From NCBI GenBank assembly GCA_027490975.1, contig JAIXXA010000145.1, positions 5,723 through 69,722 of the forward strand: a stretch of 64,000 nucleotides of DNA. Direction: 5' to 3'. The notes below the pieces were generated by a model. It made no database searches and had not been told where the DNA came from. It saw only the letters and a list, made by a program, of their open reading frames with translations. Shown one piece after another: positions 5,032 to 59,883 of the stretch; position 1 is the stretch's first letter; every line of letters begins with the position of its first letter. The position numbers and the translations under genes were made by a program. The stretch is from Rhodospirillaceae bacterium. Lineage in GTDB: Bacteria > Pseudomonadota > Alphaproteobacteria > CACIAM-22H2.

Positions 5032-6318
5032 TCAATCGACGACGATGCGCGCTTCGGGCACATCGGCGGCCATCTGATCGAGGACTTTATCCGCTTCGCC
5101 GACATCGGCAAGCGGCCCCACGCGGACACGAAAGACCTGCGCGCCATTGACCGTTGCGGGCAGCACCCGCGCCGATCCGTAGCGCGACAGGCGCACCGAC
5201 AGACGATAGGCGTTTTCGTAGTTTCCGAAAGACCCGGCTTGTACCCACAGATTGGTGCGCAGGGCCTGGCCTTGCGTCAGCGTCGGGCGCGCGGTTGCCT
5301 GCTGCTCGACCGGCAGGGCGGCAACTTCGACCGAACCGCCCGCATTGCGCGGTACGGCGGGAACTGGCGGGCCAGCGACCGCTTGGTTGTTGCGGCCCGT
5401 CGCCGGCTGGGCCGGGCGGGCTGCCGGGGCGGCACTGGGTGCTGGCGGCACAGGATCGTTGGCCGCTTGCGTTTGGATCGGCGCCGCCTGGCGCGCCAAC
5501 GGGGCTTGGGTCTCGCGCGGGCGCCCCTGGCGCGTGGTCGGCTGGGCGGCGCGCGCTGGGTCGGTGCGCGCGCTCGGCAGGGTCGCCGAAGGCGGCGGAA
5601 GGGCCGCCGCTTGCGTGCGCGTTTCGCGCGCACCGGGCGGGGGCGGCAGCGCATCGGACACCACAGCCGTGCGCGGAACCGCGGCAACCGTCTGGTTTTC
5701 GTCGCGGCCCGTGAGGGCGGCCTTGAGGCGCTGGCTTTCCTCGGCCTGGATTTCGACGCGCACGCGCGCCGTCCCCTGCCCTTCGAAGCCCAGCAGCTGT
5801 GCGGCCCGGCGCGACACGTCGATGATACGACCGCGCGCAAACGGCCCGCGATCGTTGACGCGCAGCACGATCGAGCGGCCGTTTTCGAGATTGGTCACGC
5901 GCACGAGGCTCGGCATCGGCAAAGTGGTGTGGGCGGCCGTCAGCGCGTTCATGTCGTAAAGCTCGCCGTTGGCCGTGAGCCTGCCGTGGAAATCGATGCC
6001 GCTGCGTTCGCCGCCGTAGAACGACGCGATGCCGCTTTCGGCATAGGACCAATCCTCGGCCGGATAGTACCAGGTTCCGGCGATCTGGTAGGGCTCGCCG
6101 ACCTTGTACACGCCCTGCGGCCGTACGGGCGGCGAGGCGGCCTGATCGGTCGCGGGGCCCTGGATCTTTTTGACCGCATTCACGCCGAATTTGAGCTCGG
6201 CGCAAGCACCCAGCACCAGCGTTGCCGCTGACACGGCGAAAATCGCCCGAAGACGCTTGGCTGACGCAGTCACGATGCCCAAAACCCCTGGATCTGCGCC
6301 CGAATCGATGCGGCGCAA
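5032..6318 (-). CDS. rlpA: Septal ring lytic transglycosylase RlpA (DPBB + SPOR)
   Basis: Lipoprotein-like N-terminus, double-psi beta-barrel core (SFYGGE…NDRGPF), proline-rich linker, C-terminal SPOR. Confidence 0.8.
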   Translation of the reverse strand: MRRIDSGADPGVLGIVTASAKRLRAIFAVSAATLVLGACAELKFGVNAVKKIQGPATDQAASPPVRPQGVYKVGEPYQIAGTWYYPAEDWSYAESGIASFYGGERSGIDFHGRLTANGELYDMNALTAAHTTLPMPSLVRVTNLENGRSIVLRVNDRGPFARGRIIDVSRRAAQLLGFEGQGTARVRVEIQAEESQRLKAALTGRDENQTVAAVPRTAVVSDALPPPPGARETRTQAAALPPPSATLPSARTDPARAAQPTTRQGRPRETQAPLARQAAPIQTQAANDPVPPAPSAAPAARPAQPATGRNNQAVAGPPVPAVPRNAGGSVEVAALPVEQQATARPTLTQGQALRTNLWVQAGSFGNYENAYRLSVRLSRYGSARVLPATVNGAQVFRVRVGPLADVGEADKVLDQMAADVPEARIVVD

Positions 6319-6336
6319 GCGATACTCATCAAAAAG

Positions 6337-7323
6337 CTAAACTTCGCCAATCGCGTCGGCAAGCAGTCCGACGGAGGCGGCGAAATTGACCGAGCGGTTC
6401 CAACGCATGATCACGCGGAAATTCGGATAGACGAGGAAAGCGCGCGTCCCCTCGCCATCCGGCTGGGCGATCGCCGCGCGAAGATCGCGCGTCGGCAAGT
6501 CGCGTCCGTCCGGCAGGCGCACGCCGAGCGCCTGCCATTCGCCAAGCGGCTTCCAGACATTGTTGTGGTCGACGAGGGCGCGCTCGAAGCCTGCCGGCAG
6601 CTGCGCCTGGCGGCCCCAGGTTTCGTCGGACTTCCAACCGACTCTAACGAGATAATTGGCGATCGAGGCGAAAACGTCGGCGCGCGTGTTCCAGATATCG
6701 GCTTTGCCGTCGCCATCGAAATCGACCGCATAGGCCAGATACGACGACGGCATGAACTGGCTCTGCCCCATCGCCCCCGCCCACGAGCCGCGCATCTCCG
6801 ACGGGTTCATCACGCCTTTGTCGGCAATGCGCAACGCGTTGAGCAGCTCCTCGCGGAAAAACGCCGAGCGCCGCCCATCGTAGGCAAGCGTGGCAAGGGC
6901 CGCAAAAACGTTGTGCCCGCCGGTCAGGCGCCCGAAATCGGTCTCGACCGCCCACAGTGCGACGATGAAGCGCGGCTGCACAGGATAGCGCTGCACGACC
7001 TGCCCCAAAAGCGCGCTGTTTTCGGCCAAGCGACTGCGTCCGGTATCGATGCGCACGCGATTGACCACGCGCGCGAAATACTGCTCGAAGGTGAGGCGCA
7101 CCTCGGGCTGGGCGCGGTCGAGTTCGAGAATGCGCGGCAGCGGTGCGACCCCTGCGAAAGCCTGGTCGAGCGTGGTGCGTCTGAGGCCCTTCTGCAGCGC
7201 TTCCTCGCGAAAGCCGCGCAGCCACGCATCGAACGGCATGTCGTTGGCAAAGGCGTTCGTCGGCAGGGCAGCTGCAGCCGCCATTCCCGCCAGCACAGAA
7301 CGCCGACTCGTCGGGTAATCCAT
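6337..7323 (-). CDS. Lytic murein transglycosylase, MltB family
   Basis: Tat-like signal (SRRSVLAG) at internal Met; MltB family motifs; start moved from the track ORF to MDYPTS. Confidence 0.75.
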   Translation of the reverse strand: MDYPTSRRSVLAGMAAAAALPTNAFANDMPFDAWLRGFREEALQKGLRRTTLDQAFAGVAPLPRILELDRAQPEVRLTFEQYFARVVNRVRIDTGRSRLAENSALLGQVVQRYPVQPRFIVALWAVETDFGRLTGGHNVFAALATLAYDGRRSAFFREELLNALRIADKGVMNPSEMRGSWAGAMGQSQFMPSSYLAYAVDFDGDGKADIWNTRADVFASIANYLVRVGWKSDETWGRQAQLPAGFERALVDHNNVWKPLGEWQALGVRLPDGRDLPTRDLRAAIAQPDGEGTRAFLVYPNFRVIMRWNRSVNFAASVGLLADAIGEV

Positions 7324-7460
7324 GGCTATCAACTGCCATGCCGCAGCCACACGATGCAATCGACGAATTGTTGCCGTTTGCGACGGTGCTGCATGTTGCG
7401 CAAGTCATGGAAAAGAGGCACTTTCCGGACGTTTCGCGAAACTCGACAAGGTTGGTTCCC

Positions 7461-8270
7461 ATGGGTGTTGCCGTCGTTATCCCCGCCCGGTTTGCTTCGA
7501 CCCGCTTTCCGGGCAAGCCATTGGCCCTGGTCGCTGGCGTGCCGATGCTGGCGCGCGTCTGGGCGATCGCCAAGGCGGCAGCGGGTGTGGACCGCGTCGT
7601 GGTCGCAACGGACGATGCGCGCATCGCCCACGCTGTAGCGGCTTTCGGCGGCGAAGCGGTGATGACGCCCGAATCCTGCCGCAACGGCACCGAGCGCACG
7701 AAGGCGGCCGTCGATGCGCTCGATCTGCGCGCGGAAGCGATCGTCAATCTTCAGGGCGATGCCGTGCTCACCCCGCCCTGGGCGATCGGCGCCTTGGCCG
7801 CGGCGATGCTCTCGAACCCGCAGATTCGCATCGCCACTTTGGCCACGAAAATGTCGGCCGACGCCTATGCGGCCCTCAAGCGCCAGAAGGCCGACGGCCA
7901 AGCCGGCGGCACAACCGTGACCTTCGACCGTTTCGGCGACGCGATGTATTTTTCCAAAAGCCTGATCCCCTTCGTCAAGAAGACCGACGGCGATCCGCCG
8001 CTCTACCGCCATATCGGCATCTACGCCTACCGGCGCGACGCCCTTGCCGACTATGTCGGCTTTCCGATGGGCCCGTTCGAGCGCGCCGAAGAGCTCGAAC
8101 AGCTGCGCGCCCTCGAGAACGGCATGCGCATGCGCGTGGTGCAGTGCGACTATCGCGGCCGCACGCATTGGTCGATCGACAGCTCGAGCGATCTCGTCGA
8201 GGCCGAGGCGATCATCGCGCGCGAGGGCGAGCTTCTTGCCCGCTACGACGGCACGCAGAGGCTCGTCTGA
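7461..8270 (+). CDS. kdsB: 3-deoxy-manno-octulosonate cytidylyltransferase
   Basis: N-terminal VVIPARFASTRFPGKPL motif; start placed at internal ATG 7461. Confidence 0.85.
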   Translation: MGVAVVIPARFASTRFPGKPLALVAGVPMLARVWAIAKAAAGVDRVVVATDDARIAHAVAAFGGEAVMTPESCRNGTERTKAAVDALDLRAEAIVNLQGDAVLTPPWAIGALAAAMLSNPQIRIATLATKMSADAYAALKRQKADGQAGGTTVTFDRFGDAMYFSKSLIPFVKKTDGDPPLYRHIGIYAYRRDALADYVGFPMGPFERAEELEQLRALENGMRMRVVQCDYRGRTHWSIDSSSDLVEAEAIIAREGELLARYDGTQRLV

Positions 8271-8917
8271 TGCGCCGCCTGCTCCTCGTGCGCCACGGCA
8301 ACACGTTCGAAGACGGCGTAGTGCCCACGCGCGTCGGTTCGCGCTCCGACCTCGCACTCACGCAGAAGGGTGTAGCGCAAGCGCTGACGTTCGCCGCCGC
8401 CGTGCGTACGGCCGGTCTGTGCGTGGGACCGTTTTTGGCGGGGCCGCTCCAGCGCACGCGCGATTTTCTCGCACGCGGGTTCGACGCGACGCCGACGCTC
8501 GATGCGCGGCTGCGCGAAATCGACTACGGCGACTGGGAGGGACTGACCGACGCCGAGATCGCCGCCCGCGTTGGGGCCGCCATGCTCGAGGATTGGAACC
8601 GGCGATGCGTGTGGCCGCACGGACAGAACTGGGCGCCCGACGAAGCGGCACTTGCCGCCGGTGCGGCATTGCTGGTGCTGGAACTCGCGCATGGGTCGCC
8701 GCGGTGCCTGCCGATACTGTGCAGCTCGCAAGGGGTGCTGCGCTATTTCGCCAAACTCGACGCGACGTTCTTCGTGCAGGCCCAGCGCGACAGCAAACTT
8801 GGCGTTGCGACCGGCGCCTGTTGTGGCGTGCGCCTAGCGCCGTCGGGCGCGCTCACCGTCGATTTCTGGAACGACAAACCGGACGCCGCAAGACTTGCGG
8901 CGTGGGCGCATGCTTAG
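8270..8917 (+). CDS. Histidine phosphatase (phosphoglycerate mutase-like) family protein
   Basis: LLLVRHGNT RHG motif at start; ATG overlaps kdsB stop (TGATG). Confidence 0.75.
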   Translation: MRRLLLVRHGNTFEDGVVPTRVGSRSDLALTQKGVAQALTFAAAVRTAGLCVGPFLAGPLQRTRDFLARGFDATPTLDARLREIDYGDWEGLTDAEIAARVGAAMLEDWNRRCVWPHGQNWAPDEAALAAGAALLVLELAHGSPRCLPILCSSQGVLRYFAKLDATFFVQAQRDSKLGVATGACCGVRLAPSGALTVDFWNDKPDAARLAAWAHA

Positions 8918-8932
8918 GCGCGAACCGTAGCC

Positions 8933-10030
8933 CTATTTCGCCAATTGGAGTTTGAGGATCACGGCGGCACCGGTCCGTGTGTCGGCGAGCGACAGGTTGC
9001 CGCCCATGCGAGCTGCCAAGCGTTTGGAGATCGCGAGGCCAAGGCCCGTGCCCTTGTGCGTCGCGACAGCATCGGGATCCTGCGCATAGGCTTCGCCGAA
9101 TTTCGCGCGCATGAAATCCGAAAATCCCGGGCCCTGGTCGCGAACGGTGATGCAGGCGTGATGCGCTGTGCGCGCTGCGTCGAGCAGTACGGGCTTGCCG
9201 TTCGGGCTCATCTTGATTGCGTTCGAAAGCAAATTGAGAACGATCTGCAAAAGGCTGCGTCTTTCGCCGACGGCGCGCAGTCGTTGGTCCGCCGAATGGC
9301 GGACGATTTCCACGCCTGCAGCCGCGGCGATGGGGAGCACAGTCCGCGCCGCTTCGTCGAGCACCTCGTCGATTTCGACGATCTTGTCGCCGGTCGGATC
9401 CGCCCCGCTTTCGGCACGGCTGAGATCGAGCAGATCGTCGATCAGGCTCAGCAGATGGTGCGCCGATCTGCCGATGTCGCCCGCGTAGCTCTTGTAGCGT
9501 GCATTGCCGACGGGCCCGAAAAGCTCCATTGCCATGATATCGGAAAAGCCGATGATGGCGTTGAGCGGTGTGCGCATCTCGTGGCTCATCGAAGCGAAGA
9601 ACAGCGCTTTCGCGCGCTGTGCGGCTTCGGCGCGCTCGAGCGCATTTTGCGTGTCGCGTCGCGCGGTCTGGATCTCGCGCTCGAAACGGCGCCTTTCGCG
9701 GATCGCGAAAAACGAAAAGACGAACTCGTCCGATGGCGTCAGTTTTCCGTGCATCAAGCACGGAACTTCGACGCCCGCCCTGCCGACGAGATTGCACGCG
9801 ATCTCGTCGATCTTGCCGGCCGTCAACAGCACCGGCAGAACTCGGCTTTCGAGAAAAATCTTGCCGCCGACGTCGAAGAGATCGCCGATCGACATTTTTT
9901 CCACGATGTCGGTTTCTGCAAGTTCGACGAGATCGAGGAGCGTGCGGTTCACGCGCCGGATGATGCGGTCGTAGTTGCACACCACGTAGCCGCACGGCGC
10001 TTCGTTGAAATAGTCGAAGAGAGCGCTCAT
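8933..10030 (-). CDS. Cytoplasmic PAS-sensor histidine kinase
   Basis: N-terminal PAS-like fold, intact H-box (SHEMRTPLNAI), N-box (LLSNAIKMS), G1 (DQGPGF), G2 (GTGLGL); start at internal ATG (MSALFDYF). Confidence 0.8.
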   Translation of the reverse strand: MSALFDYFNEAPCGYVVCNYDRIIRRVNRTLLDLVELAETDIVEKMSIGDLFDVGGKIFLESRVLPVLLTAGKIDEIACNLVGRAGVEVPCLMHGKLTPSDEFVFSFFAIRERRRFEREIQTARRDTQNALERAEAAQRAKALFFASMSHEMRTPLNAIIGFSDIMAMELFGPVGNARYKSYAGDIGRSAHHLLSLIDDLLDLSRAESGADPTGDKIVEIDEVLDEAARTVLPIAAAAGVEIVRHSADQRLRAVGERRSLLQIVLNLLSNAIKMSPNGKPVLLDAARTAHHACITVRDQGPGFSDFMRAKFGEAYAQDPDAVATHKGTGLGLAISKRLAARMGGNLSLADTRTGAAVILKLQLAK

Positions 10031-10043
10031 CGCCGGCCGTCCT

Positions 10044-10844
10044 TCAGCTTTGCGCGAGGAACGCGCGCATGTGCGCTGCGACCTCGTCGGGTGCGGACTG
10101 GTGCGGGCAATGGCCGGTCGCGCGCAGGATCGCCAGCCGGCAGTTCGGCATCGTGCGCGCGACATAGTCGCCGACGAAAGCCGGCGCGATGGCGTCGTTG
10201 CTGCATTGCAGGGCGAGGCTGCGCACGCGCACGTTCGGCAGCATCGCGCGGCAATCGGACAGAAACGTCGCGTGGGCAAAGTCTTTGGCGATCTCCGGAT
10301 CCATGCGGCAGAAGCTTTCCCCGAGTTCCGCTGCTAGCTCGGGGCGCGCGGGATTGCCCATGATGACCGGGGCGTAGGCCGCACTCCAGCCGATATAGTT
10401 GCTCTCGAGATACTCCAGCAGCTGGTCGATGTCGTTGCGCGAGAAGCCGCCGCGATAGGCCCCGTCGTTGAGATAGCAGGGCGACGGCGCGATCATGACG
10501 AGATTGGCGACACGCTTCGGCGCCTCGGCGGCCGCCAGCATTGCGATCGTCGCTCCGACCGAGTGGCCGACGAGCGTCACCGTTCCGCCGCCGAAGGCTT
10601 CCACAATCTCGAGCATGTCTTGAGCGTAGCTGTCGAGCGTTGCGTAGCGGTCCTTGGCATAGGCGGAAACTTCCGACATGCCCGAGCCGACATGGTCGAA
10701 ACAGACGATCCTATGGCTCCCTTCGAAATACGGCACGAGCTGGCGCCAGACCGACTGGTCGCAGCCGAAGCCGTGCGCGAAGATGACCGTGTCCTCGCCG
10801 CTGCCCGCGACGTTCACGGCATTTCGCGAGGCGAGAGGGGCCAT
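10044..10844 (-). CDS. RsbQ-family alpha/beta-hydrolase
   Basis: Near-colinear match recalled to B. subtilis RsbQ (FAHGFGCDQSVW, GHSVGA nucleophile elbow, PSPCYLND, GHCPH); 13 nt upstream of the PAS-HK. Confidence 0.85.
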   Translation of the reverse strand: MAPLASRNAVNVAGSGEDTVIFAHGFGCDQSVWRQLVPYFEGSHRIVCFDHVGSGMSEVSAYAKDRYATLDSYAQDMLEIVEAFGGGTVTLVGHSVGATIAMLAAAEAPKRVANLVMIAPSPCYLNDGAYRGGFSRNDIDQLLEYLESNYIGWSAAYAPVIMGNPARPELAAELGESFCRMDPEIAKDFAHATFLSDCRAMLPNVRVRSLALQCSNDAIAPAFVGDYVARTMPNCRLAILRATGHCPHQSAPDEVAAHMRAFLAQS

Positions 10845-10927
10845 GGTGTCTCCCCAGTTTTGTCGTTCGTGGTAAGCGCAGGATGGCGCCGGAACGATTA
10901 AGGTCCGGTTAATCCGGCCTGTCTCCG

Positions 10928-11794
10928 CTAGCCTTCGTCGGCGGGCGGCGGTGCCGTTTCGCCTTGCGGCATTTCGGGCTCCGGGCTCGGGAACAGCGCG
11001 TCGGTGCGCCCGAGTTTGTAGTAATAGGCAAGGCCGATATATTCGCGGATCGCCTCGGACAGGAAATTGAGATTGTGCCCGAGACGGAAAGCGCTTTCGA
11101 AAGGCTGGTTGGGATCGGTCGCAAAATCGATCGGATATGCCAGAAGGTGCGGCCAGCCCGCCTTGCGGAACGTGCCGATCGCGCGCGGCATGTGGCGCGC
11201 CGACGTGATCAGGAGCCAGGTTTCTTCGGGCTCCGGCTTGATGAGGGCGAGGCTCAGCTTCGCGTTTTCGTAGGTGTTGCGCGACTGGTTTTCGAAGATG
11301 ATGCGCGTCGTGTCGAGGCCGATGCGCGCGAATATGCGCCGCACGACGTCGGCCTCGGTGTCCTTGCCGTCGATGAGTTCGATCGAACCGCCCGTGAAGA
11401 CGTGCCGGGCCGCCGGATAGCGGCGTGCCAGTTCGATGAACGCGTCGAGCCGCGGGCTGCCGGCGGCTAGCTGCGAGGATGGCACGCCGCGTTTGCCGAT
11501 CACGTAGTAGTCGATGACGCCGCCGAGCACGAGGATGCCGTCGATGCGCGGCGGCAGCGTGGCGCGCGGCGGAAAACGGTCTTCGATCGGGCGCAGCGCC
11601 ATCTGCCCGAGCGGGAACATTGCGACGGCGAGCGAGAACACGGCGGCGAGGCACACCAGCAACCGTCCGAGGCGCCACCACGGGGTCCACAGAACCAAAC
11701 AACCTGCAACCCACACCGACAGCAACAGGCTCGCCGGCTCGGCCACGAGCCAGAAGAGTTTGGAAAGATAGAGTTGGAAATCGCCGGCGCTCAT
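10928..11794 (-). CDS. YdcF/ElyC (DUF218) family membrane protein
   Basis: N-terminal TM helices plus DUF218-like core. Confidence 0.65.
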   Translation of the reverse strand: MSAGDFQLYLSKLFWLVAEPASLLLSVWVAGCLVLWTPWWRLGRLLVCLAAVFSLAVAMFPLGQMALRPIEDRFPPRATLPPRIDGILVLGGVIDYYVIGKRGVPSSQLAAGSPRLDAFIELARRYPAARHVFTGGSIELIDGKDTEADVVRRIFARIGLDTTRIIFENQSRNTYENAKLSLALIKPEPEETWLLITSARHMPRAIGTFRKAGWPHLLAYPIDFATDPNQPFESAFRLGHNLNFLSEAIREYIGLAYYYKLGRTDALFPSPEPEMPQGETAPPPADEG

Positions 11795-12147
11795 TTTTTA
11801 CGGCGTGCACTCTAGGCCGTCGCACGCTCGCAGCGCAACCGCGCCGACGCAAAATCGGCGGGATTATCAACGTCGTCGGCTCACGCCAGCACGGCGGCGA
11901 CAGGGAAAGCGTGTCTGGCGCGCAAGCTTCGCGCGCCGAAAGACTGCTTGATCTTGCCGTTCCAGTATCTGGCCGCACCCGAATACAAATCGACGGATCG
12001 CCCGCTTCGGGGCGGACTTCCCACCGGATCTTCTAAATCGAAACCGCCGCGCAAAAGAGCCGAACGGGCACCAAGCGGTCTCTAGCCTCCGTGCGCGTCG
12101 GCGGCTATAAGGCAGGGAACCGTTCTTGAGCGTCGGCGCGGCGATGC

Positions 12148-12237
12148 GGATGGGTGGCCGAGTGGTTTAAGGCAGCGGTCTTGAAAACCGCCGTCGGTGC
12201 AAGCCGACCGTGAGTTCGAATCTCACCCCATCCGCCA
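12148..12237 (+). tRNA. tRNA-Ser (anticodon UGA), 90 nt with long variable arm
   Basis: Acceptor GGATGGG/CCCATCC, anticodon loop cUUGAaa, long extra arm, T-arm GTTCGAATC, discriminator G plus CCA. Confidence 0.85.
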
Positions 12238-12340
12238 GCGGCCCGCAAGTTTGGCAAATGCCCTTCGTTTCCGCCCTGTTTCGTGACAGGATGATAGGCG
12301 TTGTTTAATCCATAGTTTCCGCAAATGAAATTGGACGAAA

Positions 12341-12904
12341 ATGCGTTTGGTTCTGGCAAGTCGGCGCAATGCGACGCTTTACGCCCATTGGGTGACGGCA
12401 AGCTTGCGCAAAGCAATGCCGACCAGCAAAGACATTGGACCCGCCACCCTGTCGCCGGATCTCATTCCCGATCTGCCGTATATTTACATCGCGCGCGTGA
12501 TGCGCGACGAACTCGGCACGTGGTTCAAATTCCGCCTGATGGGATCAAATCTGGGCGACAGACTGCAACAGGACGGCACGGGCCGCATGCTGCTCGACCT
12601 GCAGATCGGCGGCTGGGAAGAAGAATGGCGCCGCAACCTCGTCCAGACGGTGCAGATGAAACTGCCGGTCGTCGATGAAAGCATCATCAAGACCGAGGCT
12701 GGCTACGATCTCGACATCGAGCATCTGGCGCTGCCGATTTCCGAGGACGGCACGACCGTCGACCAGATATTCGGCTCGATCGATTTCATCGGGCAGACGG
12801 AAGCCGATCTTCAGAAGATGATCCCGCAGCTCGACTGGAAGAAGATCACTTCTGTCGAGCTTGCCAAGCGCATCATCATTTCGAACCTGCGCCTGCAGGT
12901 GTGA
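12341..12904 (+). CDS. PAS_5-type (alphaproteobacterial PAS-like) small protein, paralog 1
   Basis: About 180 aa; shares SRRNAxxYAHW…GGxE(D)EWRR…GSIDF blocks with the next gene. Confidence 0.6.
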   Translation: MRLVLASRRNATLYAHWVTASLRKAMPTSKDIGPATLSPDLIPDLPYIYIARVMRDELGTWFKFRLMGSNLGDRLQQDGTGRMLLDLQIGGWEEEWRRNLVQTVQMKLPVVDESIIKTEAGYDLDIEHLALPISEDGTTVDQIFGSIDFIGQTEADLQKMIPQLDWKKITSVELAKRIIISNLRLQV

Positions 12905-13025
12905 CTCAACGGCTCTGGTCTGTCGTGCCGCAGCGTCGCATCTATGCGGTAGTGCAAATGTCGGGGTTTTGCTACCATTCAGCGGCAAGGCGTTTCTGAG
13001 CGACATGTTCGTCGGCCCCCAATAG

Positions 13026-13604
13026 ATGGTGATGGCAGTGCGACCCGTGCTGACGAGCTCACGCAACGCGCATATCTACGCTCATTGGCTGTTGGCGCGC
13101 GGGGCCAAAAAAATGCCCTGTCGGCGCGAGTTCCAGCCCGACGTGATCCCTTTCGATCTCAGTCTCGAACTGCCGCAGATTTACATTGTCGAAATCCAAG
13201 GCAACGGCCCGCGTGCGGAATTCAGATTCAGCTTGATTGGCACGCTGCTCGCCGAACGCCTGAAACAGGACGCGACCGGCAAATATCTGTCGCAAATGAA
13301 GCTCGGCGGCTTCGAAGACGAATGGCGACGCAGCCTTACTTTTGCGCTCGAAACCAGGATGCCCGTCGTCTCCGAAAGCCAGATCGTCGCGGCGTCCGGC
13401 ATGCGGGTCGAGATCGAACATCTGCTCGTGCCGCTGTCCGAGAACGACGAGCATGTGGATCGGATTCTCGGTTCGATAGATTTCCTGAAAGCCGCCGACG
13501 TCGAAGCGCTGCGGCGCATACGCGAAATCGACTGGAACGCGATCGCCTCGCATGAACTCGCCAAACGCATCGTCGTCGCGAATTTGCGGATCGACGACGC
13601 GTGA
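13026..13604 (+). CDS. PAS_5-type small protein, paralog 2 (tandem)
   Basis: Colinear paralog of 12341..12904. Confidence 0.6.
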   Translation: MVMAVRPVLTSSRNAHIYAHWLLARGAKKMPCRREFQPDVIPFDLSLELPQIYIVEIQGNGPRAEFRFSLIGTLLAERLKQDATGKYLSQMKLGGFEDEWRRSLTFALETRMPVVSESQIVAASGMRVEIEHLLVPLSENDEHVDRILGSIDFLKAADVEALRRIREIDWNAIASHELAKRIVVANLRIDDA

Positions 13605-13634
13605 GGCTCGGCGACGAAGCTGCGGCTTTAGCCG

Positions 13635-14875: not shown

Positions 14876-17800
14876 TCAATCGTCGGCGCTCGAGGCGGTT
14901 TTGGCTTCAGGGGCGGCGCGCAACGTGCGCTCGGGCGGAAACACGAGTGTGGCGACCGCGCCCTCGCCGATCCGGCTCGTAAGCTTGAGTTCGGCCCCGT
15001 GCAGTTTTGCGAGCGTCTGCACGAGCGCAAGGCTGCGGCCGCCGTCGCGCTCCACGTCGCGGCCGCCGCCGCTTTTCGACTTGGCAAGTCCCGCCTGGCG
15101 TCGTTTGAGAACTTCGTCGGCCGAAAAGCCGGGGCCGCCGTCGCGTACCGAAATCTCGATCTGGCCGTCGCGTTCGCGGATATGGATCGACACCAGCGAG
15201 TCGGGCGGCGAAAACCGCACGGCATTGCCCACGAGATTGAGCAGCATCTGGCGCACAAGCCCGGTGTCGCAGCGCAGGCGCGGCAGATCGCGCGCGATCG
15301 CGGCCGACAGACGGTGCCCGCGCCGGCCCGCATCGGCCTCGAGCATGCGCACGACCGAGCGCGCGATTTCGCCGGGATTGCCGTCGCTTTCGCGCAACAG
15401 GCCGGGGCCCGCATCGAGCTGCGAGAGATCGAACATGCGTGCGACGAAATCGAGAAGGTGTTCGGCGCTGTCGTGGATGTCGTGGGCACCGGCAGCGATG
15501 CTCGCCCCCCCTGCCCGCTCGAGCGCTTCGGAAATGCCGAGGATCGTGTCGAGCGGTGCGCGCATCTCGCGGCTCGCGTCGGCAAGGAAGCGCTCGCGGA
15601 ACGCCGCCTCTTCGCGCGCCTTGCTCTCGGCGGCACGCTGGGTGATCTCGGCGAGCTTGCGGTCGGAAATATCGATGTGGCTCACCACCGCCGCGCGCGC
15701 GCCGTCGAGCCAAACGGGCCGGCACGTGCAGCGGTACCAGCGCTGCAGGTCCGGCGAATGGCACGGATATTCGATGCTGAATTCGGCAAGTTCGCCCGCC
15801 AGCACGCGCGACAGCCCGCTTGCCACGTCGTGCGCCTCTTCGGCGCAGTCGCCGGTCGAGCTGCGGCACACTTCGATGTAGTTGGACCCCGCCCCGAAGC
15901 CTTCGCCCACCAGGCCGTTGAGGCGCGCGAAATCGTCCCAGGCTTTGTTGGTGGCGACGATGCGGCCGACGGCGTCGACAAGGGCCAGATGCGCGGGAAC
16001 CCCGTCGAGGGCCGCACTCTGCGCGCCCGCGAGCGCGCGCAACGCGGTTTCCTGCTCCTTGAGCACGCGCTGCGAGCGCACCGCTTCGGTGTTTTCGTAG
16101 AAAAACAGCAGAGCGCCGATCGTGGCCTCGCTGTCGTCGCGATTGGCGACGATGCTGAGCTGGTAGTCGCGGTCGGCGAGCGAAACCTGGCGCTCGAAGG
16201 CGCGGCCGCGCTGCAGCACGTTGTCGATGCGGCCGGCCAGATCGTCGAAGCCCGTCGCCTGGCGGATGCGCGATACGCCGTCGGCAAGATTTTCGACCGT
16301 GAGACCGAACGCTGCCCCCGCCGCCGAGTTGAAGCGCCGCACGCGGCCCACCCGATCCACCACGACAAGCGGAGCCGCGATCGAGTTCTGGATGTTCACG
16401 AGGTCGGTGTTGGCTTCGTGCAGCTCCGAGCTTTTCTGCTCGAGCTCTTCGTTGATCGTCTGCAGCTCCTCGTTGGTCGACTGCAGCTCTTCGTTCGAGG
16501 TTTCGAGTTCCTCGTTGGTGGATTGCAGTTCTTCGTTTGCCGATTGCAGCTCTTCGTTGGCCGACTGCAGCTCTTCGTTGGCGGTCTCGAGCTCCTCGGT
16601 CACCGTCTGCAGATGCTCGCGCGCGGCTGCAAGTTCGTGGCGGATTTCGACCACCACCTGCTCGGCACCCGGCTCGGGTGCTGCAAGATTGGCGGCAAGG
16701 GTCGATGCCGTGTCGAGGAAACTCACCAGATAATACTGGAGATTTTCGCCCGGCACCGGCACGAGGCGCACGGCCACGCGCACGCCCTTGCCGGTTTCGG
16801 GGTCGATGTCTGTCGCCTCGACCGCGATGTTTTCGCGCCGCGCCTTGTGCACGAGCATGCGGATCATCGTTCCGAGTTGTCGCGTGACGAGGCCCGCGAG
16901 CGTGAGATCGGGTTTGCCCGCCGTGATCTGCAGCACGCGCGCGACGTCGCCGTGCGCCTGCAGCAGGGTCAGGTTCTCATCCACGAGCACGGATTTCGGC
17001 GCAAACGCCTCGGCGAGGGCGCGCTCGATCAGCGTCTGGGTGGAGAAGCGCGGCGGGATTTCGACGCGCGGGCGAGCGGTCGGATAGGCCGCCCCGATCT
17101 GCACGAGATTGCGGATGCTGGGTTCGGCCCCGGCCGGCACGTCGCGGCGGCGCGACAATTTGGCCTTGCGGTCGATGGGCTCGAACAGGTCCGAATGCGC
17201 CCCCAGCGTTTCGGATTTGCCGAGCAGCAAGAGGCCGTTCACGCGCAGCGCCCGATGGAACAACGCGATCAGCTGCGCGTTCACTTCGGCCTTGAAATAG
17301 ATCAACAGATTGCGGCACGACACGATGTCGATGCGCAGGAAGGGCGGCTGGCGCAGCAGATTGTGCTTGGCGAAAACCAGGCGCTCGCGCACGTCTTTGG
17401 CGACCTGGTAGGCCTCGCCCGTATCGACGAAGTATTTCTGCACGAGATGCGGATCGACCGTCGTCAGCGCGTCGTACGGGTAGATGCCGCGCCGCCCGAC
17501 CGCGATCGCTTCCTCGTCGATGTCGGTCGCGAAAATCTGGACCTTGCGCGCGGTCTTGGCGCGCTCGAGCGCTTCGACGATCGAGATCGCGATCGAATAG
17601 GCTTCCTCGCCGGTCGAACAGCCTGGGATCCAGACGCGCAACGGTGCCGTTCGGTCGCCGACGGTCAGCAGCGAGTCGAGGGCGCTCGAGAACGCGTCGA
17701 ACACTTCCGGATCGCGGAAGAACGACGTGACCGGAATCATGATCGCCTGCGCCAGCCTGTCGAGTTCGTTGGGCTTGGCGCGCAGCAAGGCAAGGAAGGC

Positions 17801-18565
17801 GGCCGTGTCGGCCATGCGCGACGCGGCCATGCGCGATTCCACGCGCCGCTGCACCGTGCCGGGTTTGTAGTTCTTGAGGTCGATGCCGTGGCGCTCGTTG
17901 AGCAACGAGAAAATCTCGTCGATGTCCGAGAGCTGAACAACCGGCGGGGCCGGCGGGGCGAAGTCGCGCGGCGCATCGGCGATCTTGGGCAACTGCGCGC
18001 CGATCGCGTCGGGCGGCAGGATCACGTCGATCACGCCTGTATCGATCGCCGCCTGCGGCATGCCGTTGTACTTGGCGCTCTCCTCGTTCTGGACGATCGC
18101 GAGGCCGCCCGCCGCCTTGATCGCGCGAATGCCGGCTGCACCGTCGGTGCCGGTCCCCGACAGCACAATCGCGATCGCGCGCGGGCCGTAGGCTTTGGCG
18201 AGGCTCTCGAACAGAACGTTGACTGACGGTTTGGGACCGCGGTCGGCATGCGGTCGCTGCAGCACGATGGCATCGCCGCGCACCGATATGTCGCAATTGG
18301 GAGGCGTGATGTAGATCCGGTTGGCGGCAAGCCGCACCCCGTCGCGCGCCTCTTCAATGGGCACGCGGCTTTCGCGAGAGAGCAAGGCAGCCAGCATGCT
18401 GGCATGCTGTGGGGCAAGATGCTGGGCCACGACCACGGCAAAGCCGGTGTCGCTGGGCAGATTGCCGATGAGGGCGCGCAACGCTTCCAAGCCGCCGGCC
18501 GAGGCCCCGATCGCCACATAGGCGCGCGGCGCGTCACTTTCAGCAGGCTTGGCGTTGTCGCTCAT
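14876..18565 (-). CDS. CheB methylesterase-CheR methyltransferase-coiled coil-PAS-HisKA/HATPase fusion protein (1229 aa), H-box His replaced by Arg
   Basis: N-terminal CheB catalytic domain (GASAGG, GTDG), CheR SAM-MTase domain, about 10 heptad repeats (NEELQS), PAS region, kinase core with SREMRAPL in place of SHELRTPL and weakened G2 box. Confidence 0.85.
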   Translation of the reverse strand: MSDNAKPAESDAPRAYVAIGASAGGLEALRALIGNLPSDTGFAVVVAQHLAPQHASMLAALLSRESRVPIEEARDGVRLAANRIYITPPNCDISVRGDAIVLQRPHADRGPKPSVNVLFESLAKAYGPRAIAIVLSGTGTDGAAGIRAIKAAGGLAIVQNEESAKYNGMPQAAIDTGVIDVILPPDAIGAQLPKIADAPRDFAPPAPPVVQLSDIDEIFSLLNERHGIDLKNYKPGTVQRRVESRMAASRMADTAAFLALLRAKPNELDRLAQAIMIPVTSFFRDPEVFDAFSSALDSLLTVGDRTAPLRVWIPGCSTGEEAYSIAISIVEALERAKTARKVQIFATDIDEEAIAVGRRGIYPYDALTTVDPHLVQKYFVDTGEAYQVAKDVRERLVFAKHNLLRQPPFLRIDIVSCRNLLIYFKAEVNAQLIALFHRALRVNGLLLLGKSETLGAHSDLFEPIDRKAKLSRRRDVPAGAEPSIRNLVQIGAAYPTARPRVEIPPRFSTQTLIERALAEAFAPKSVLVDENLTLLQAHGDVARVLQITAGKPDLTLAGLVTRQLGTMIRMLVHKARRENIAVEATDIDPETGKGVRVAVRLVPVPGENLQYYLVSFLDTASTLAANLAAPEPGAEQVVVEIRHELAAAREHLQTVTEELETANEELQSANEELQSANEELQSTNEELETSNEELQSTNEELQTINEELEQKSSELHEANTDLVNIQNSIAAPLVVVDRVGRVRRFNSAAGAAFGLTVENLADGVSRIRQATGFDDLAGRIDNVLQRGRAFERQVSLADRDYQLSIVANRDDSEATIGALLFFYENTEAVRSQRVLKEQETALRALAGAQSAALDGVPAHLALVDAVGRIVATNKAWDDFARLNGLVGEGFGAGSNYIEVCRSSTGDCAEEAHDVASGLSRVLAGELAEFSIEYPCHSPDLQRWYRCTCRPVWLDGARAAVVSHIDISDRKLAEITQRAAESKAREEAAFRERFLADASREMRAPLDTILGISEALERAGGASIAAGAHDIHDSAEHLLDFVARMFDLSQLDAGPGLLRESDGNPGEIARSVVRMLEADAGRRGHRLSAAIARDLPRLRCDTGLVRQMLLNLVGNAVRFSPPDSLVSIHIRERDGQIEISVRDGGPGFSADEVLKRRQAGLAKSKSGGGRDVERDGGRSLALVQTLAKLHGAELKLTSRIGEGAVATLVFPPERTLRAAPEAKTASSADD
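16435..16615. repeat. Tandem 21-nt coding repeats (about 8-9 units) encoding NEELQ(S/T) heptads
   Basis: Repeated ctgcagctcttcgttgg-like units visible directly in the DNA. Confidence 0.8.
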
Positions 18566-50244: not shown

Positions 50245-52380
<2,136 letters not shown>

Positions 52381-52507
52381 CCGCGCGCCGTTCGGCACCT
52401 GCCGCAGCATGCGAATGTATGCTGCACGCGCCGGAAAAGTCTGGCGCGGCGCGCGTCGGGGAGGCTAAGAATGTCTCTTTGCCGAGACATCTCCGAGAGA
52501 GCGGCAC

Positions 52508-53026
52508 GTGGAGTTCGACGACGTCATCGACCATCCGGATCTGCTGGCGCTTTACCGCCATTGGCGGGCGCTTGCCCGCGGCGCCACACCGCCGCGTGCG
52601 GCCTTCGACCCCTTCGCGATGCCACGCTTGATGCCGAATCTGTTTCTGATGGATGTTCTGCCGGACGGCGGCTTCCGGTACCGGCTGGTCGGAACCGCCA
52701 TCGACGCGCATCTGGGCGTTTCGTTCACCGGGCGACGGCTCGACGAAGTGCGCGCGGGCAAAACGCGCGACGACCTTGCCCATCTCTTCGCAACCGTGGC
52801 GAACGAACGCCGCCCCGGCTACTACGCCTCGCGCCTTGCGAGCGAGACGAACGCCCATGCCAGCTACCGACGGCTCGTGCTGCCGCTTGCGGCAGCCGAC
52901 GGCTCGGTGGCCGTGCTGCTCGGCGGCTTCTGCGTCGTATGGGCGAACGAGAGTTTGGATCCGATGCGCATCACGTCGTTCGCCAACGCGCCCGAAATCG
53001 GCGGCACGCTGATGTTTCGGCGGTAG
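52508..53026 (+). CDS. PAS_5-type small protein, paralog 3
   Basis: GTG start; same family as 12341/13026/60733. Confidence 0.55.
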   Translation: MEFDDVIDHPDLLALYRHWRALARGATPPRAAFDPFAMPRLMPNLFLMDVLPDGGFRYRLVGTAIDAHLGVSFTGRRLDEVRAGKTRDDLAHLFATVANERRPGYYASRLASETNAHASYRRLVLPLAAADGSVAVLLGGFCVVWANESLDPMRITSFANAPEIGGTLMFRR

Positions 53027-53091
53027 GCGTCGACGCGTCCGCGCAGCCGAAAACAACAAAATTTTTTCGTATAAATCAGCCGCACATCGAC

Positions 53092-53547
53092 ATGCATCTT
53101 TGGCCGATGGGGGCATTGAATCTGCCGATCTCGAACCACATATACAGCGATGTTCGAGAAAACACCGTCGAGGGTCCCTCTTCCCTCTGGCATACGCGAA
53201 ACGGGAATTGGGTGCCGATGTTCGAAGCTTTTTTTGGCGCGCTCGACGCGTCGCTGCCTTGGCTCATGGCGATCGCCGCAGCGGCGATACTGACCGGAAA
53301 CCATTTTGCGCGCGCCGTTCTCGTCGATTACGGCCTGTCGCTGCGCGCGCGCCAATATGCCGGCCTGGGATGCGCGACGGCCGCTTTGGCGATGTGGTCG
53401 GGCATCACGTCGTGCCATGCGACGACGGGTTTGATCGCCGTTCTGATCGGCTTGAGCGTCAATGCGATCCGCCTCAATCGCTTTGCACATGCGACCGCTT
53501 CGAGCGTGTTTGCGGCCACCCTCGTGCCTGTCGTGGCCGTGTCGTGA
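53092..53547 (+). CDS. Hypothetical membrane protein (3-4 TM)
   Basis: Hydrophobic segments; TATAAAT-like -10 in AT-rich upstream DNA; competing out-of-frame ORF 53100..54317. Confidence 0.35.
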   Translation: MHLWPMGALNLPISNHIYSDVRENTVEGPSSLWHTRNGNWVPMFEAFFGALDASLPWLMAIAAAAILTGNHFARAVLVDYGLSLRARQYAGLGCATAALAMWSGITSCHATTGLIAVLIGLSVNAIRLNRFAHATASSVFAATLVPVVAVS

Positions 53548-54317
53548 ACGGCGCGCGTCTCTTCTTCCCGGCCGCCTGGCCGCTCGATTCCTTCGCCGTG
53601 CTCGATGCGATGCGCCCGCTTTACCAGGCCGGCGCCAAAAAAATTACGCGCTATCCGCTCAAGCATCTTCGCTACTGGTTCATGCGCCACCTGCTCGAGC
53701 AGAAGGCGGCGAAACTGGGGCGTCCGCTCTCGGTCCTCGAAGTGGGCGTCGATCGCGGGCAGATGCTCGCTTTCATGGGCGGCCCGGCGCGCAAAGCCGC
53801 GCTGATCGAACGGTGGGACGCGATCGACGTCGCGCCCGCGCACGAGATGCTGGCGCGCGTCGGTTACGACGACGTTCGCACCATGAACGTCGATGCCGGC
53901 GCCGATCCGCATCTCGAGCGGCGCTACGACGTCATGATCTTTCTGCATCTGCTGGAACATCTGCATGCGCCCGAGCAATGCTTGGCGCGTTTCCAGCAGT
54001 ATCTCCCGCGCGGCGGCACGATGATCGGCGGCAGCCCGACAATGCCGCGCTTGGTTGCCGATGCGGGCTACGAGCAGCGCCTTGCCCGTCGGGCGCGGCC
54101 TTTCGGGCACGTGAGCGTCCTGTCGCCCGAACGCATCGACAGCTTCGCCGAACAGGCCGGCCTGCGCGTGGCTTTCATGTCGGGAGCGTTCTTCATGCGG
54201 CGCCAGGGCAGCCGGCTCGAAAATTCGCGGCTGTGGCTGCGCGCGAACCTGGCTTTTGGCGGACTTTTTCCGTCGCTCGGCAGCGAAATCTATTTTGCGC
54301 TCGAGCGCGCCGAATAG
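53544..54317 (+). CDS. SAM-dependent methyltransferase-like protein
   Basis: LEVGVDRGQ motif-I-like; GTGA overlap with preceding ORF; start uncertain. Confidence 0.5.
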   Translation: MNGARLFFPAAWPLDSFAVLDAMRPLYQAGAKKITRYPLKHLRYWFMRHLLEQKAAKLGRPLSVLEVGVDRGQMLAFMGGPARKAALIERWDAIDVAPAHEMLARVGYDDVRTMNVDAGADPHLERRYDVMIFLHLLEHLHAPEQCLARFQQYLPRGGTMIGGSPTMPRLVADAGYEQRLARRARPFGHVSVLSPERIDSFAEQAGLRVAFMSGAFFMRRQGSRLENSRLWLRANLAFGGLFPSLGSEIYFALERAE

Positions 54318-54330
54318 CGCCGGAACCGGC

Positions 54331-54376
54331 TGCCAAGCCCGCCGGGGCTCGAACCCGGAACCTCGACCTAAAAGAG
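54331..54376 (-). repeat. Diverged copy of tRNA 3'-end segment (T-arm + acceptor, no CCA)
   Basis: agcccgccggggctcgaacccggaacc… aligns with copies at 60451 and 63985. Confidence 0.5.
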
Positions 54377-54394
54377 CAATTGCCGCGGCAACGG

Positions 54395-55300
54395 TCAGGC
54401 CTCGCTGGCGGTGCGATCGAGAAGCTGGTTGAGCCGCTCATTCGCCTCGGTCGTGAGGTTGATGTGCGAGCGTCGCTTGTCGCGCGGATCCTCGTGGCGC
54501 ACGATCAGCCCTGCTTCGACCATGTCCTGCACCCGGCGCAGCGCCGTCGTCTGGCTGATGTTCGCTGACATGCACAAGCCCGACACCGACGTCGCCTTGC
54601 CGCTTCTTTCGAGAAGTGCGAGCTCCAGAAACATGAACCAAGCAGGATCCCCGAACATCTCCTGCGGCAGCAGCTCCGATCGCTGGTTGCGGAAACGGAG
54701 CAGCGATCTGAGGGTATCTATCCGACGTCGCTCGCGGCTCTCCGGCGTCTCCGCGCCGCGGCCCGACTTGGCGAGGCCCGACTTGGCGAGGTCCGACTTG
54801 GCGAGGTCCGGCGCTGCGCTGCCCGGCGTCGGGGCAAGCAGAAGCGCGCGCAGTGCCGAAACCGCCGTATCGTTGGCGTTCGACGATTCGACGGCGCGTC
54901 GGTAGTTCGAAACGGCGGCGGCGACCACGGCAAGCGCCTCGTCGGGCTCGAACGGCTTTTGCAGATACCTTGCGACGCGCAGATCGATGGCCTCGATGGC
55001 GCTCGATATCTCCGGAAACCCCGTCATCAGGATCAGCGCGCACGCAGCGCCGCGATCGCCGCACCGCCGAATCTTCTGCAGAAAACCGATGCCGTCCTGC
55101 AGCGGCATTCGGATGTCGGAAACGACGACGCCGATGCGGTCGTCCTTGAGAAAACGTTCGAGTCCCTGCGAGGCGCTGATTGCGCCGACGGCGTCGAAAC
55201 CGGCAGCGCACAGCGCAAAGACGAGTTCTTCGACGGCCGACTCCTCGTCGTCGACAACGAGGATCTTTACGGCGTCGTCGGATTGCTGGCTTTTCTGCAT
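54395..55300 (-). CDS. Response regulator: REC domain, repeat linker, MarR-like winged-helix
   Basis: REC residues (VVDDEE, VVVSDIRMP, ILMTG, LQKPF); C-terminal wHTH (…CMSANISQTTALRRVQDMVEAGLIVRH…). Confidence 0.75.
   Translation of the reverse strand: MQKSQQSDDAVKILVVDDEESAVEELVFALCAAGFDAVGAISASQGLERFLKDDRIGVVVSDIRMPLQDGIGFLQKIRRCGDRGAACALILMTGFPEISSAIEAIDLRVARYLQKPFEPDEALAVVAAAVSNYRRAVESSNANDTAVSALRALLLAPTPGSAAPDLAKSDLAKSGLAKSGRGAETPESRERRRIDTLRSLLRFRNQRSELLPQEMFGDPAWFMFLELALLERSGKATSVSGLCMSANISQTTALRRVQDMVEAGLIVRHEDPRDKRRSHINLTTEANERLNQLLDRTASEA
54762..54810. repeat. 3 x 15-nt tandem repeat (cccgacttggcgagg) inside the REC-wHTH gene, encoding LAKSD/LAKSG repeats
   Basis: Seen directly in the DNA. 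Confidence 0.7.
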
Positions 55301-55324
55301 GCTTCGAAACTCGTCGAGAGGATG

Positions 55325-57475: not shown

Positions 57476-57701
57476 GGGGCCCCGGCCATCTCGATGCTGT
57501 TGTCTCTATCCCATGACAATAAAATCAACATCTTCTACCGGGACAGAACGACCCATGTCGATCCCCGTCAAAGTTCAGATTGGAATCCAAACTGAACCAG
57601 ACTGTTCTGTCGGCCGGTTCAAAGTGCGACTAGCGTGCTTAACAAGCGATTAACGGCGTGTCGGCGCGATTTGGCGCAACAAGCGGGATGGGCGTAGTCA
57701 G

Positions 57702-58640
57702 ATGTCGAAACAGATGCTGAAACCAGACACCGACGGCGCAAGCGGCCCAGGCGCAAACGGTGAAGCGCAATTGAAGCTTCGGATGGGCATCCGGCGCCTG
57801 CGCCCTGCGCTTTCGTCGGCCCGCGCCGGCGCACAGGCCAACGCCCGGGCGGCGCCCGCCCCTGTGTCCGACGAGGCGAATGCTGCGCTGATTGCCGCCA
57901 AGAATGCGGCCGAAGCCGCCAACCGAACCAAAGCAGCCCTGCTTGCCAACATGAACCACGAGCTTCGCGCGCCGCTGAACGCGATTCTCGGCTTCTCCGA
58001 AATTCTCGCCGACAACACCGTCGTCGCGCACGGACCGCTTCAGGTCGCCCGGCAAACCGAATTCGCCGGCCATCTGAACAACGCCGGCCACCAGCTTCTC
58101 GACATCGTCGAAAGCATCCTCGACCTTGCGACCATCGAAGACGAAGCGCGCGACATTCGTCCTTCGCCGACTTGCCTGGGCGGCCTCGTCGCGGATGTGG
58201 TGGCGCGGCTGCAGCCGCTCGCGTCGCAATTCGGCGTGCAGATTCGCACCGACCTCGATGCCGATCTGCCGAACTGCGCCATCGACGCCGCCCGCATCCG
58301 CCAGGCGCTTCGCAGCGTCGTCGACAACGCAATCAAGTTCTCGAACAGAAACGGCACGGTGACTGTCGCGGTCTCGCGCTCGAACGCGGCCAATGCCGTC
58401 GTCACCGTTTCGGATACCGGCGTCGGGATCGGCCCGGCGGACATCGCCGACGTCTTCCGCGAGTTTCACCATGGCGATTCGTCGTTCACGCGACGGTACG
58501 ACGGCGCCGGGCTCGGCTTGACCTATGCGAAGAAGTTCGTCGAACAGCACAAGGGCCGCATCACGCTGGCGAGCGAACGGAACGTCGGCACCACCGTGAC
58601 GATCGAATTGCCTTTCGTCGCCGCGACGCAAGAAGGATGA
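57702..58640 (+). CDS. Soluble histidine kinase (HisKA + HATPase)
   Basis: H-box NHELRAPLNAI; N, G1, G2 boxes intact; low-complexity N-terminus. Confidence 0.8.
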   Translation: MSKQMLKPDTDGASGPGANGEAQLKLRMGIRRLRPALSSARAGAQANARAAPAPVSDEANAALIAAKNAAEAANRTKAALLANMNHELRAPLNAILGFSEILADNTVVAHGPLQVARQTEFAGHLNNAGHQLLDIVESILDLATIEDEARDIRPSPTCLGGLVADVVARLQPLASQFGVQIRTDLDADLPNCAIDAARIRQALRSVVDNAIKFSNRNGTVTVAVSRSNAANAVVTVSDTGVGIGPADIADVFREFHHGDSSFTRRYDGAGLGLTYAKKFVEQHKGRITLASERNVGTTVTIELPFVAATQEG

Positions 58641-59877: not shown

Positions 59878-59883
59878 CGTGCC

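Follow-up and report, generated by a model that had tools for sequence, protein, structure and literature searches.

A gene pair for an RsbQ-type hydrolase and a PAS histidine kinase in a Rhodospirillaceae bacterium, a probable kinase-coupled form of the RsbQ-PAS sensor

The DNA analysed here, referred to as the window, is a stretch of 64,000 nucleotides (nt) from a Rhodospirillaceae bacterium (Alphaproteobacteria; GenBank assembly GCA_027490975.1, contig JAIXXA010000145.1, positions 5,723 to 69,722 of the forward strand); all coordinates below are those of the window. Its minus strand carries a gene pair, comprising a gene for an RsbQ-type alpha/beta-hydrolase (10844..10044) and, directly after it, a gene for a histidine kinase (10030..8933), which was examined as a candidate RsbQ-PAS sensor, i.e. 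the type of signalling module represented by RsbQ and RsbP of Bacillus subtilis. An earlier reading of the same DNA (the original prediction) had pointed out the pair, and had suggested that the hydrolase/PAS logic of RsbQ and RsbP is wired here to a two-component output.

Gene pair and domain architecture

The hydrolase frame extends from an ATG at 10844 to a TGA at 10044 (266 amino acids, aa), and the kinase frame from an ATG at 10030 to a TAG at 8933 (365 aa); direct reading of the intergenic spacer (10031..10043, minus strand, 13 nt) revealed an AGGA motif resembling a Shine-Dalgarno sequence. As far as can be judged from the DNA, the two genes almost certainly share one transcript. A scan of positions 8700-12300 for promoters and terminators detected no terminator-like site between them; the scan yielded two promoter-like sites (0.6 expected from shuffled sequence), both on the opposite strand, and five terminator-like sites (4.4 expected), and is regarded as uninformative because these counts are near the shuffled expectation. 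The remaining open reading frames (ORFs) listed in this region of 65% G+C content arise from frames that overlap on the same DNA, and were given no weight.

The top sequence match of the hydrolase (10044..10844) in the PDB is RsbQ of B. subtilis (1wom; E=4e-82, 279 bits, approximately 50% identity), with an alignment that covers residues 2-256 and contains a single one-residue gap; the near-colinearity with RsbQ that had been claimed for this protein is thus borne out, and the four motifs quoted in its support are all present (FGCDQSVW, 26-33; GHSVGA, 93-98; PSPCYLND, 120-127; GHCPH, 244-248). The next match is Olei00960 of Oleispira (3qvm), followed by about 50 structures of KAI2, D14, HTL and DAD2 (E=1e-54 to 1e-41; 145-186 bits for KAI2/D14), in agreement with the membership of the KAI2/D14 family proposed earlier; the first unrelated esterase is found at E=4e-11 and 47 bits. 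In Pfam, only the generic Abhydrolase families (Abhydrolase_6/1) match. An assignment as PcaD, PcaDC or BioH was rejected, with NCBIfam scores of 94 bits for PcaDC (cut-off 390), 81 bits for BioH (cut-off 207) and 77 bits for PcaD (cut-off 256).

The catalytic triad, for which a check had been advised in the original prediction, is in place: S96, D219 and H247 of RsbQ correspond, without gaps, to S95 (codon 10562-10560), D217 (codon 10196-10194) and H245 (codon 10112-10110), and the three columns are invariant in all complete homologues of an alignment with RsbQ homologues from 13 genomes. Further, the RsbQ residues F27, Y125 and L144, which were highlighted by Melville et al. (bioRxiv 10.1101/2023.12.05.570042) as conserved pocket residues of RsbQ and KAI2, are kept as F26, Y124 and L142. 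The position of RsbQ F197, a residue that narrows the Bacillus pocket, is occupied by Leu195, and Leu is found here also in several other non-Bacillus homologues aligned. On sequence grounds the predicted protein is a member of the RsbQ/KAI2/D14 family, orthologue-like to RsbQ and with all triad residues present.

The kinase (8933..10030, minus strand) is predicted by Pfam, AlphaFold2 and Foldseek as a soluble protein of PAS-coiled-coil-HisKA-HATPase architecture. Its HisKA dimerisation and phospho-acceptor domain (residues 141-209; 9404..9610; PF00512, E=9e-18) and its HATPase_c catalytic ATP-binding domain (residues 256-364; 8939..9265; PF02518, E=1.4e-18) both score above the Pfam gathering thresholds. 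The phospho-acceptor H150 (codon 9583-9581) is located in the sequence SHEMRTPLN and is nearly invariant in an alignment of the window kinase with 30 homologues, and in the HATPase_c domain of the same 31 sequences N270 and G300 are invariant and N266, G329 and G331 nearly so. No membrane-spanning segment was found in the kinase (maximum Kyte-Doolittle mean over 19 residues, 1.36). By these predicted features it is a soluble sensor histidine kinase of class I (HisKA), and the description of the partner, 13 nt downstream (10043..10031), as a cytoplasmic PAS histidine kinase can be retained.

The AlphaFold2 model of the kinase, computed on the 31-sequence alignment, has a mean predicted local distance difference test score (pLDDT) of 87, with values of 92-95 over residues 11-110, and represents residues 110-170 as one continuous helix that leads from the PAS domain into the HisKA/kinase core. 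The linker (residues 110-140; 9611..9703, minus strand) has the sequence AIRERRRFEREIQTARRDTQNALERAEAAQRAK, and its coiled-coil nature is read from this helix prediction. The best whole-length matches of the model in Foldseek are all PAS-kinases (YF1, 4gcz; SB2F1, 8a52; VicK, 4i5s; WalK, 9a5d).

For the first approximately 112 residues of the kinase (9695..10030, minus strand), several searches point to a PAS domain of the RsbP type. In phmmer, residues 7-124 can be aligned over their full extent with the N-terminal domains of proteins encoded downstream of RsbQ homologues (E=1e-10 to 1e-16), among them Bacillus RsbP homologues, whose residues 4-127 take part in the match (E=1e-10 to 1e-12), and BLASTP of the domain against RsbP of B. 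stercoris gives E=3e-12 at 27% identity over the full domain length; these phmmer and BLASTP values take the place of the published class cut-off, which is a PSI-BLAST E<3e-18 against RsbP residues 1-109 (PMC3183031). Among the 31 sequences of this architecture, 28 match Pfam PAS_9, by which the N-terminal domain of the window kinase is taken as a divergent member of the PAS family. The predicted topology is that of a PAS fold with five strands, i.e. a flanking helix, two strands, short helices, the F-alpha helix (residues 54-71) and three strands. A sequence search of the PDB with the PAS region returned chance matches only (E>1), and no RsbP-PAS structure is reachable in this way. No DIT motif is present at the end of the domain, which reads ...FVFSFFAIRERRRFE.

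An exhaustive HMMER search with the N-terminal 125 residues against 1.84 billion representative proteins yielded 1167 matches at E<=1e-3, nearly all located at the extreme N-terminus of the target. The best 150 of these comprise 74 kinases or hybrid kinases, 16 PP2C phosphatases and three GGDEF proteins, the rest being mostly short fragments, which shows, as far as domain homology can, that kinase outputs dominate among the closest relatives of this PAS domain. A word-indexed search with a 141-aa PAS fragment returned two matches, a number that reflects the sensitivity of the search and not rarity.

The domain was also compared with nine class-distinguishing residues of RsbP (C10, L13, L48, Q53, F55, C56, Y59, E72 and P86) and the conserved P62, as published (PMC3183031). 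There are matches for C10 (C13, within an APCG motif at residues 11-14), L13 (V16, also hydrophobic), Q53 (K57; the consensus is basic), F55 (F59, in the F-alpha helix), P62 (P66), E72 (E76) and P86 (P90); F55 is the residue required for binding of RsbQ. By homology and predicted fold, the assignment as a divergent RsbP-type PAS domain is confirmed indirectly.

Occurrence of the pair and relation to known systems

Peptide patterns of the hydrolase, scanned against a single genome for each species, retrieved 53 loci, in a sample that is skewed to Bacillota by the patterns used. In 45 of these loci the next gene on the same strand begins directly behind the hydrolase gene and encodes a protein with an RsbP-PAS; the gaps range from -28 to +87 nt, except in locus L049 (313 nt), where the hydrolase frame appears truncated. 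The eight loci without such a PAS include one contig of 503 nt, two matches at only 24-27% identity, and several loci of Bacteroidota, Acidobacteriota and Planctomycetota. The paired loci are distributed over Bacillota, Actinomycetota, Cyanobacteriota, Gemmatimonadota, and Alpha- and Betaproteobacteria, and their outputs are PP2C/SpoIIE (27 loci), GGDEF with or without EAL (11), histidine kinase (five, one of them a hybrid) and PAS alone (two).

The two loci of the last group, in a Pseudoduganella metagenome-assembled genome (MAG; L002:6797-7306) and a Solirubrobacterales MAG (L003:6732-7196), encode stand-alone RsbP-type PAS proteins of 169 and 154 aa, respectively, after an RsbQ homologue; the 2011 survey described below distinguished three classes of output, none of which covers such output-less proteins. 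In Paenisporosarcina quisquiliarum (L035:6741-7738), one of the 45 paired loci, the PAS-GGDEF gene appears to be split over two frames; a frameshift, a pseudogene or an error in the sequencing could each account for this.

The nearest genome is that of Tagaea sp. (Rhodospirillaceae; MAG L001), which is colinear with positions 5384-11904 of the window (6.5 kb) at 84% nucleotide identity. Its pair comprises a hydrolase of 79% identity and a kinase of 82% identity, likewise with a gap of 13 nt, and the two kinases align over 354 residues without gaps or frameshifts; two more near-identical copies of each protein are present in public data. The pairing, for which a synteny comparison had been recommended, therefore recurs both in the nearest genome and in the 45 loci above.

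The kinase-coupled wiring of an RsbQ-PAS module was known before this analysis. Nadezhdin, Brody and Price (PLoS One 2011, PMC3183031) described 45 adjacent RsbQ/RsbP-PAS pairs across bacteria, with a PPM phosphatase, a histidine kinase (in Gram-negatives) or a diguanylate cyclase as output, and with the PAS domain N-terminal in all 45 cases and usually followed by a coiled coil. The same study demonstrated that the PAS domain of B. subtilis RsbP is necessary and sufficient for binding of RsbQ, and that F55A abolishes both binding and signalling. More recently (eLife 2025, PMC12143880), an AlphaFold model of a 2:2 RsbP/RsbQ complex placed RsbQ on a hybrid interface of PAS and linker, and the coupling of the RsbQ-PAS module to kinases and cyclases across phyla was restated.

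The window pair resembles the kinase version of this module (PMC3183031) in the RsbQ-type gene immediately upstream, the N-terminal RsbP-PAS, the helical linker and the Gram-negative host, and its PAS domain shares with the module the lack of a DIT motif, the APCG motif, and the Phe and Pro of the F-alpha helix; the module calls for a linker of at least 21 residues, and the window kinase has the predicted single helix 110-170. It differs at three of the nine signature positions, which are occupied by F52, L60 and R63. With RsbQ/RsbP of B. subtilis the pair has in common the identity of about 50% between the hydrolases, the same triad and pocket residues, an identity of about 27% between the PAS domains, the gene order and the close spacing. 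The output of the B. subtilis system is a PP2C phosphatase acting on RsbV/sigma-B, whereas that of the window pair is a HisKA/HATPase kinase, and the window proteins have Leu for F197 of RsbQ and Arg for Y59 of RsbP. Taken together, the RsbP-type PAS, the order of genes across phyla and the interchangeable outputs support the suggestion of a hydrolase/PAS logic with two-component output.

Plant KAI2/D14 are homologous hydrolases with the same triad and with a receptor-enzyme logic, in which ligand hydrolysis drives a protein-protein interaction; however, their partners are the F-box proteins MAX2/D3 and the repressors SMAX1/SMXL/D53, and the partner in the window is a bacterial PAS-kinase. Similarly, FixL and the engineered YF1 (4gcz) have the order of PAS, coiled coil, dimerisation and histidine phosphotransfer domain and catalytic domain that is predicted for the window kinase, but the PAS domains of such kinases sense by means of a bound heme or flavin cofactor and, as a rule, terminate in a DIT motif, whereas the PAS of the window lacks DIT, has no known cofactor, and is presumably read out by the hydrolase as a separate protein.

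Proposed mode of signalling and alternatives

With the gene order, the homology to RsbQ and RsbP-PAS, the intact catalytic and phospho-acceptor residues, the predicted architecture and the conservation of the pairing at hand, we consider it quite probable that the pair forms a two-gene, cytoplasmic RsbQ-PAS sensor with two-component output, in which the hydrolase signals its ligand state to the kinase through direct contact with the PAS domain and linker of the latter. The hydrolase would bind a small hydrophobic ester or lactone, plausibly a butenolide-like compound, at Ser95-His245-Asp217 under its helical lid, probably with slow hydrolysis; it would then dock, in a ligand-dependent manner, on the PAS domain of the kinase dimer, where it would contact the F-alpha face near Phe59 as well as the first part of the linker; the docking would make the long helical linker change in conformation or rigidity, and would thereby set the autophosphorylation of His150, from which the phosphoryl group would be transferred to a response regulator encoded elsewhere. 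We infer the physical contact between hydrolase and PAS by analogy with RsbQ/RsbP of B. subtilis, and what is proposed on the class of ligand, on the direction in which the kinase is regulated and on the target of the pair further downstream is likewise conditional.

The statement in the original prediction that the ligand is unknown holds for the natural ligand, but not for synthetic ones, since RsbQ proteins bind and hydrolyse synthetic butenolides and strigolactone analogues according to two preprints: GR24 and dGR24 are bound and hydrolysed by RsbQ of B. subtilis, whose catalytic His becomes covalently modified (bioRxiv 10.1101/2023.12.05.570042), and a proteobacterial RsbQ, of Stenotrophomonas rhizophila, hydrolyses strigolactone analogues (bioRxiv 10.1101/2025.03.14.642314).

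Several observations weigh against the proposed sensor. Three signature positions of RsbP do not match in the window PAS, namely L48 (F52, a conservative exchange), C56 (L60; the consensus is aromatic) and Y59 (R63; the consensus is His or Tyr), and alanine at L48 or Y59, both of which differ here, gives a null phenotype in RsbP (PMC3183031). In Pfam, the window kinase on its own gives no PAS match, even at E<=1. For the hydrolase, the triad geometry, together with the four-helix, V-shaped lid that covers a hydrophobic pocket in this family, is taken from the 50% identity to 1WOM, the single-sequence AlphaFold model having a pLDDT of 47, and the exchange of F197 for Leu195 may, as read from the alignment, entail a ligand preference different from that of Bacillus RsbQ. 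No experimental study of a kinase-coupled RsbQ-PAS pair was found in the open-access literature, and every functional step proposed is therefore made by analogy with B. subtilis. Finally, no receiver-domain ORF was detected within approximately 44 kb of the pair.

The nearest receiver-domain ORFs in the window are located at 54395-55300, 58172-59071 and 59884-60414. At the other loci of the kinase type no regulator was found within 6 kb either, the exceptions being L006, whose kinase is a hybrid, and L049, which has a receiver-containing ORF at some distance; the RsbQ-linked kinase is an orphan in this sense. The cognate response regulator of a class I kinase is usually encoded adjacent to the kinase gene, and this adjacency is not a defining feature of the class. 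The three receiver ORFs of the window belong to a signalling cluster (50245-60414) more than 40 kb from the pair, which also includes histidine-kinase ORFs at 50245-52380, 57702-58640 and 58708-59877; the ORFs 57702-58640 and 58172-59071 overlap, so that at least one of them is probably spurious.

The three departures from the signature, two of them at positions that are null as alanine in RsbP, could also be taken, with the lack of a PAS match in Pfam and of a nearby regulator, as signs of a decayed remnant, in which a divergent PAS has become uncoupled from the hydrolase and an orphan kinase either signals on its own or is silent. We hold this to be very improbable: both frames are intact, with all catalytic residues present, and the PAS region is modelled with pLDDT >90; the Tagaea orthologue has the same F, L and R at the three positions, and its protein identity of 82% over 354 gapless residues indicates purifying selection; furthermore, position 59 of RsbP is non-aromatic in other paired homologues (Arg in L048; other residues in L032 and L041). 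The departures F52/L60/R63 are thus read, from these comparisons, as lineage variation and not as decay. An older hypothesis for RsbQ/RsbP assumes a chemical signal in place of contact, by which a product of the hydrolase diffuses into the PAS pocket and acts there as ligand of the kinase; it would be in line with the invariance of the triad across all complete homologues aligned and with a conserved, interior-facing F-alpha region in the PAS. It appears unlikely for the window pair, given that direct binding of RsbQ by the B. subtilis PAS, and the loss of binding and signalling in F55A (PMC3183031), speak against it, as do the retention of F55 as F59 in the window and the finding that in plant D14/KAI2 the hydrolase itself is the receptor.

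Finally, it is hardly conceivable that the hydrolase has a routine metabolic role, as an esterase or lactonase (for instance a 3-oxoadipate enol-lactonase or an enzyme like BioH), and merely happens to be encoded in one operon with an unrelated kinase. The generic Abhydrolase families of Pfam match the hydrolase, and there are partial NCBIfam matches to the PcaD, PcaDC and BioH models (E=1e-21 to 1e-26), but these score far under the curated cut-offs, while RsbQ gives 279 bits; no pca or bio genes adjoin the pair, and the order of hydrolase and RsbP-PAS, which is kept in 45 of the 53 loci from multiple phyla despite a changing output, is the pattern expected of a functional sensor pair.

Neighbouring genes and implications

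Upstream of the hydrolase gene, at a distance of 83 nt and on the same strand, lies a DUF218/ElyC-like gene (10928-11794, minus strand), which is part of the block colinear with Tagaea. On the other side of the pair, a KdsB-like cytidylyltransferase gene (7338-8270, plus strand) and a gene of the histidine-phosphatase family (8267-8917, plus strand) overlap by 4 nt, and the latter is convergent with the kinase gene, with 15 nt between the two stop codons. A tRNA-Ser(tga) gene (12148-12237, plus strand) is followed by tandem paralogous PAS_5 genes (PF07310; 12341-12904 and 13026-13604) of 43% mutual identity, in a stretch of 58% GC content (compared with about 65%). This tRNA-Ser/PAS_5 block of approximately 1.4 kb (12148-13634) is interpreted as an insertion or a deletion because it is missing from the otherwise colinear Tagaea MAG; direct repeats flanking the block were looked for, and none were found. 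Further along, an ORF for a protein of 1229 aa (14876-18565, minus strand) matches the histidine-kinase core in its C-terminal part, and has the appearance, by sequence, of a fusion with CheB/CheR-type domains at the N-terminus; the central part of the protein contains a striking run of ELQSxNEEL heptad repeats.

The window pair is one more uncharacterised example of a sensor type that was defined in 2011, and it alone changes little; its peculiarities, i.e. R63, L60, F52, L195 and the lack of a linked regulator, are minor. The altered contact helix (Arg63, Leu60) and the wider pocket (Leu195) might mark a sub-lineage with a different partner or ligand specificity. The practical value of the pair is modest and is that of a small and soluble set of hydrolase and kinase, which would give a simple in-vitro autophosphorylation readout for ligand screening and for the communication between hydrolase and PAS; any of the many similar pairs in other bacteria would do equally well.

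As a tentative and rather doubtful extension, the pair may function in the cytoplasm as the receptor of a lactone signal, butenolide-like or otherwise, which is produced by the cell itself or by a neighbour; the receptor would feed into a two-component pathway via an unlinked regulator. If this is true, the minimal system of hydrolase and kinase could serve to search for the class of natural ligands recognised by the RsbQ/KAI2 family as a whole, because proteobacterial RsbQ is reported as the donor lineage from which plant D14/KAI2 are said to derive (bioRxiv 10.1101/2025.03.14.642314).

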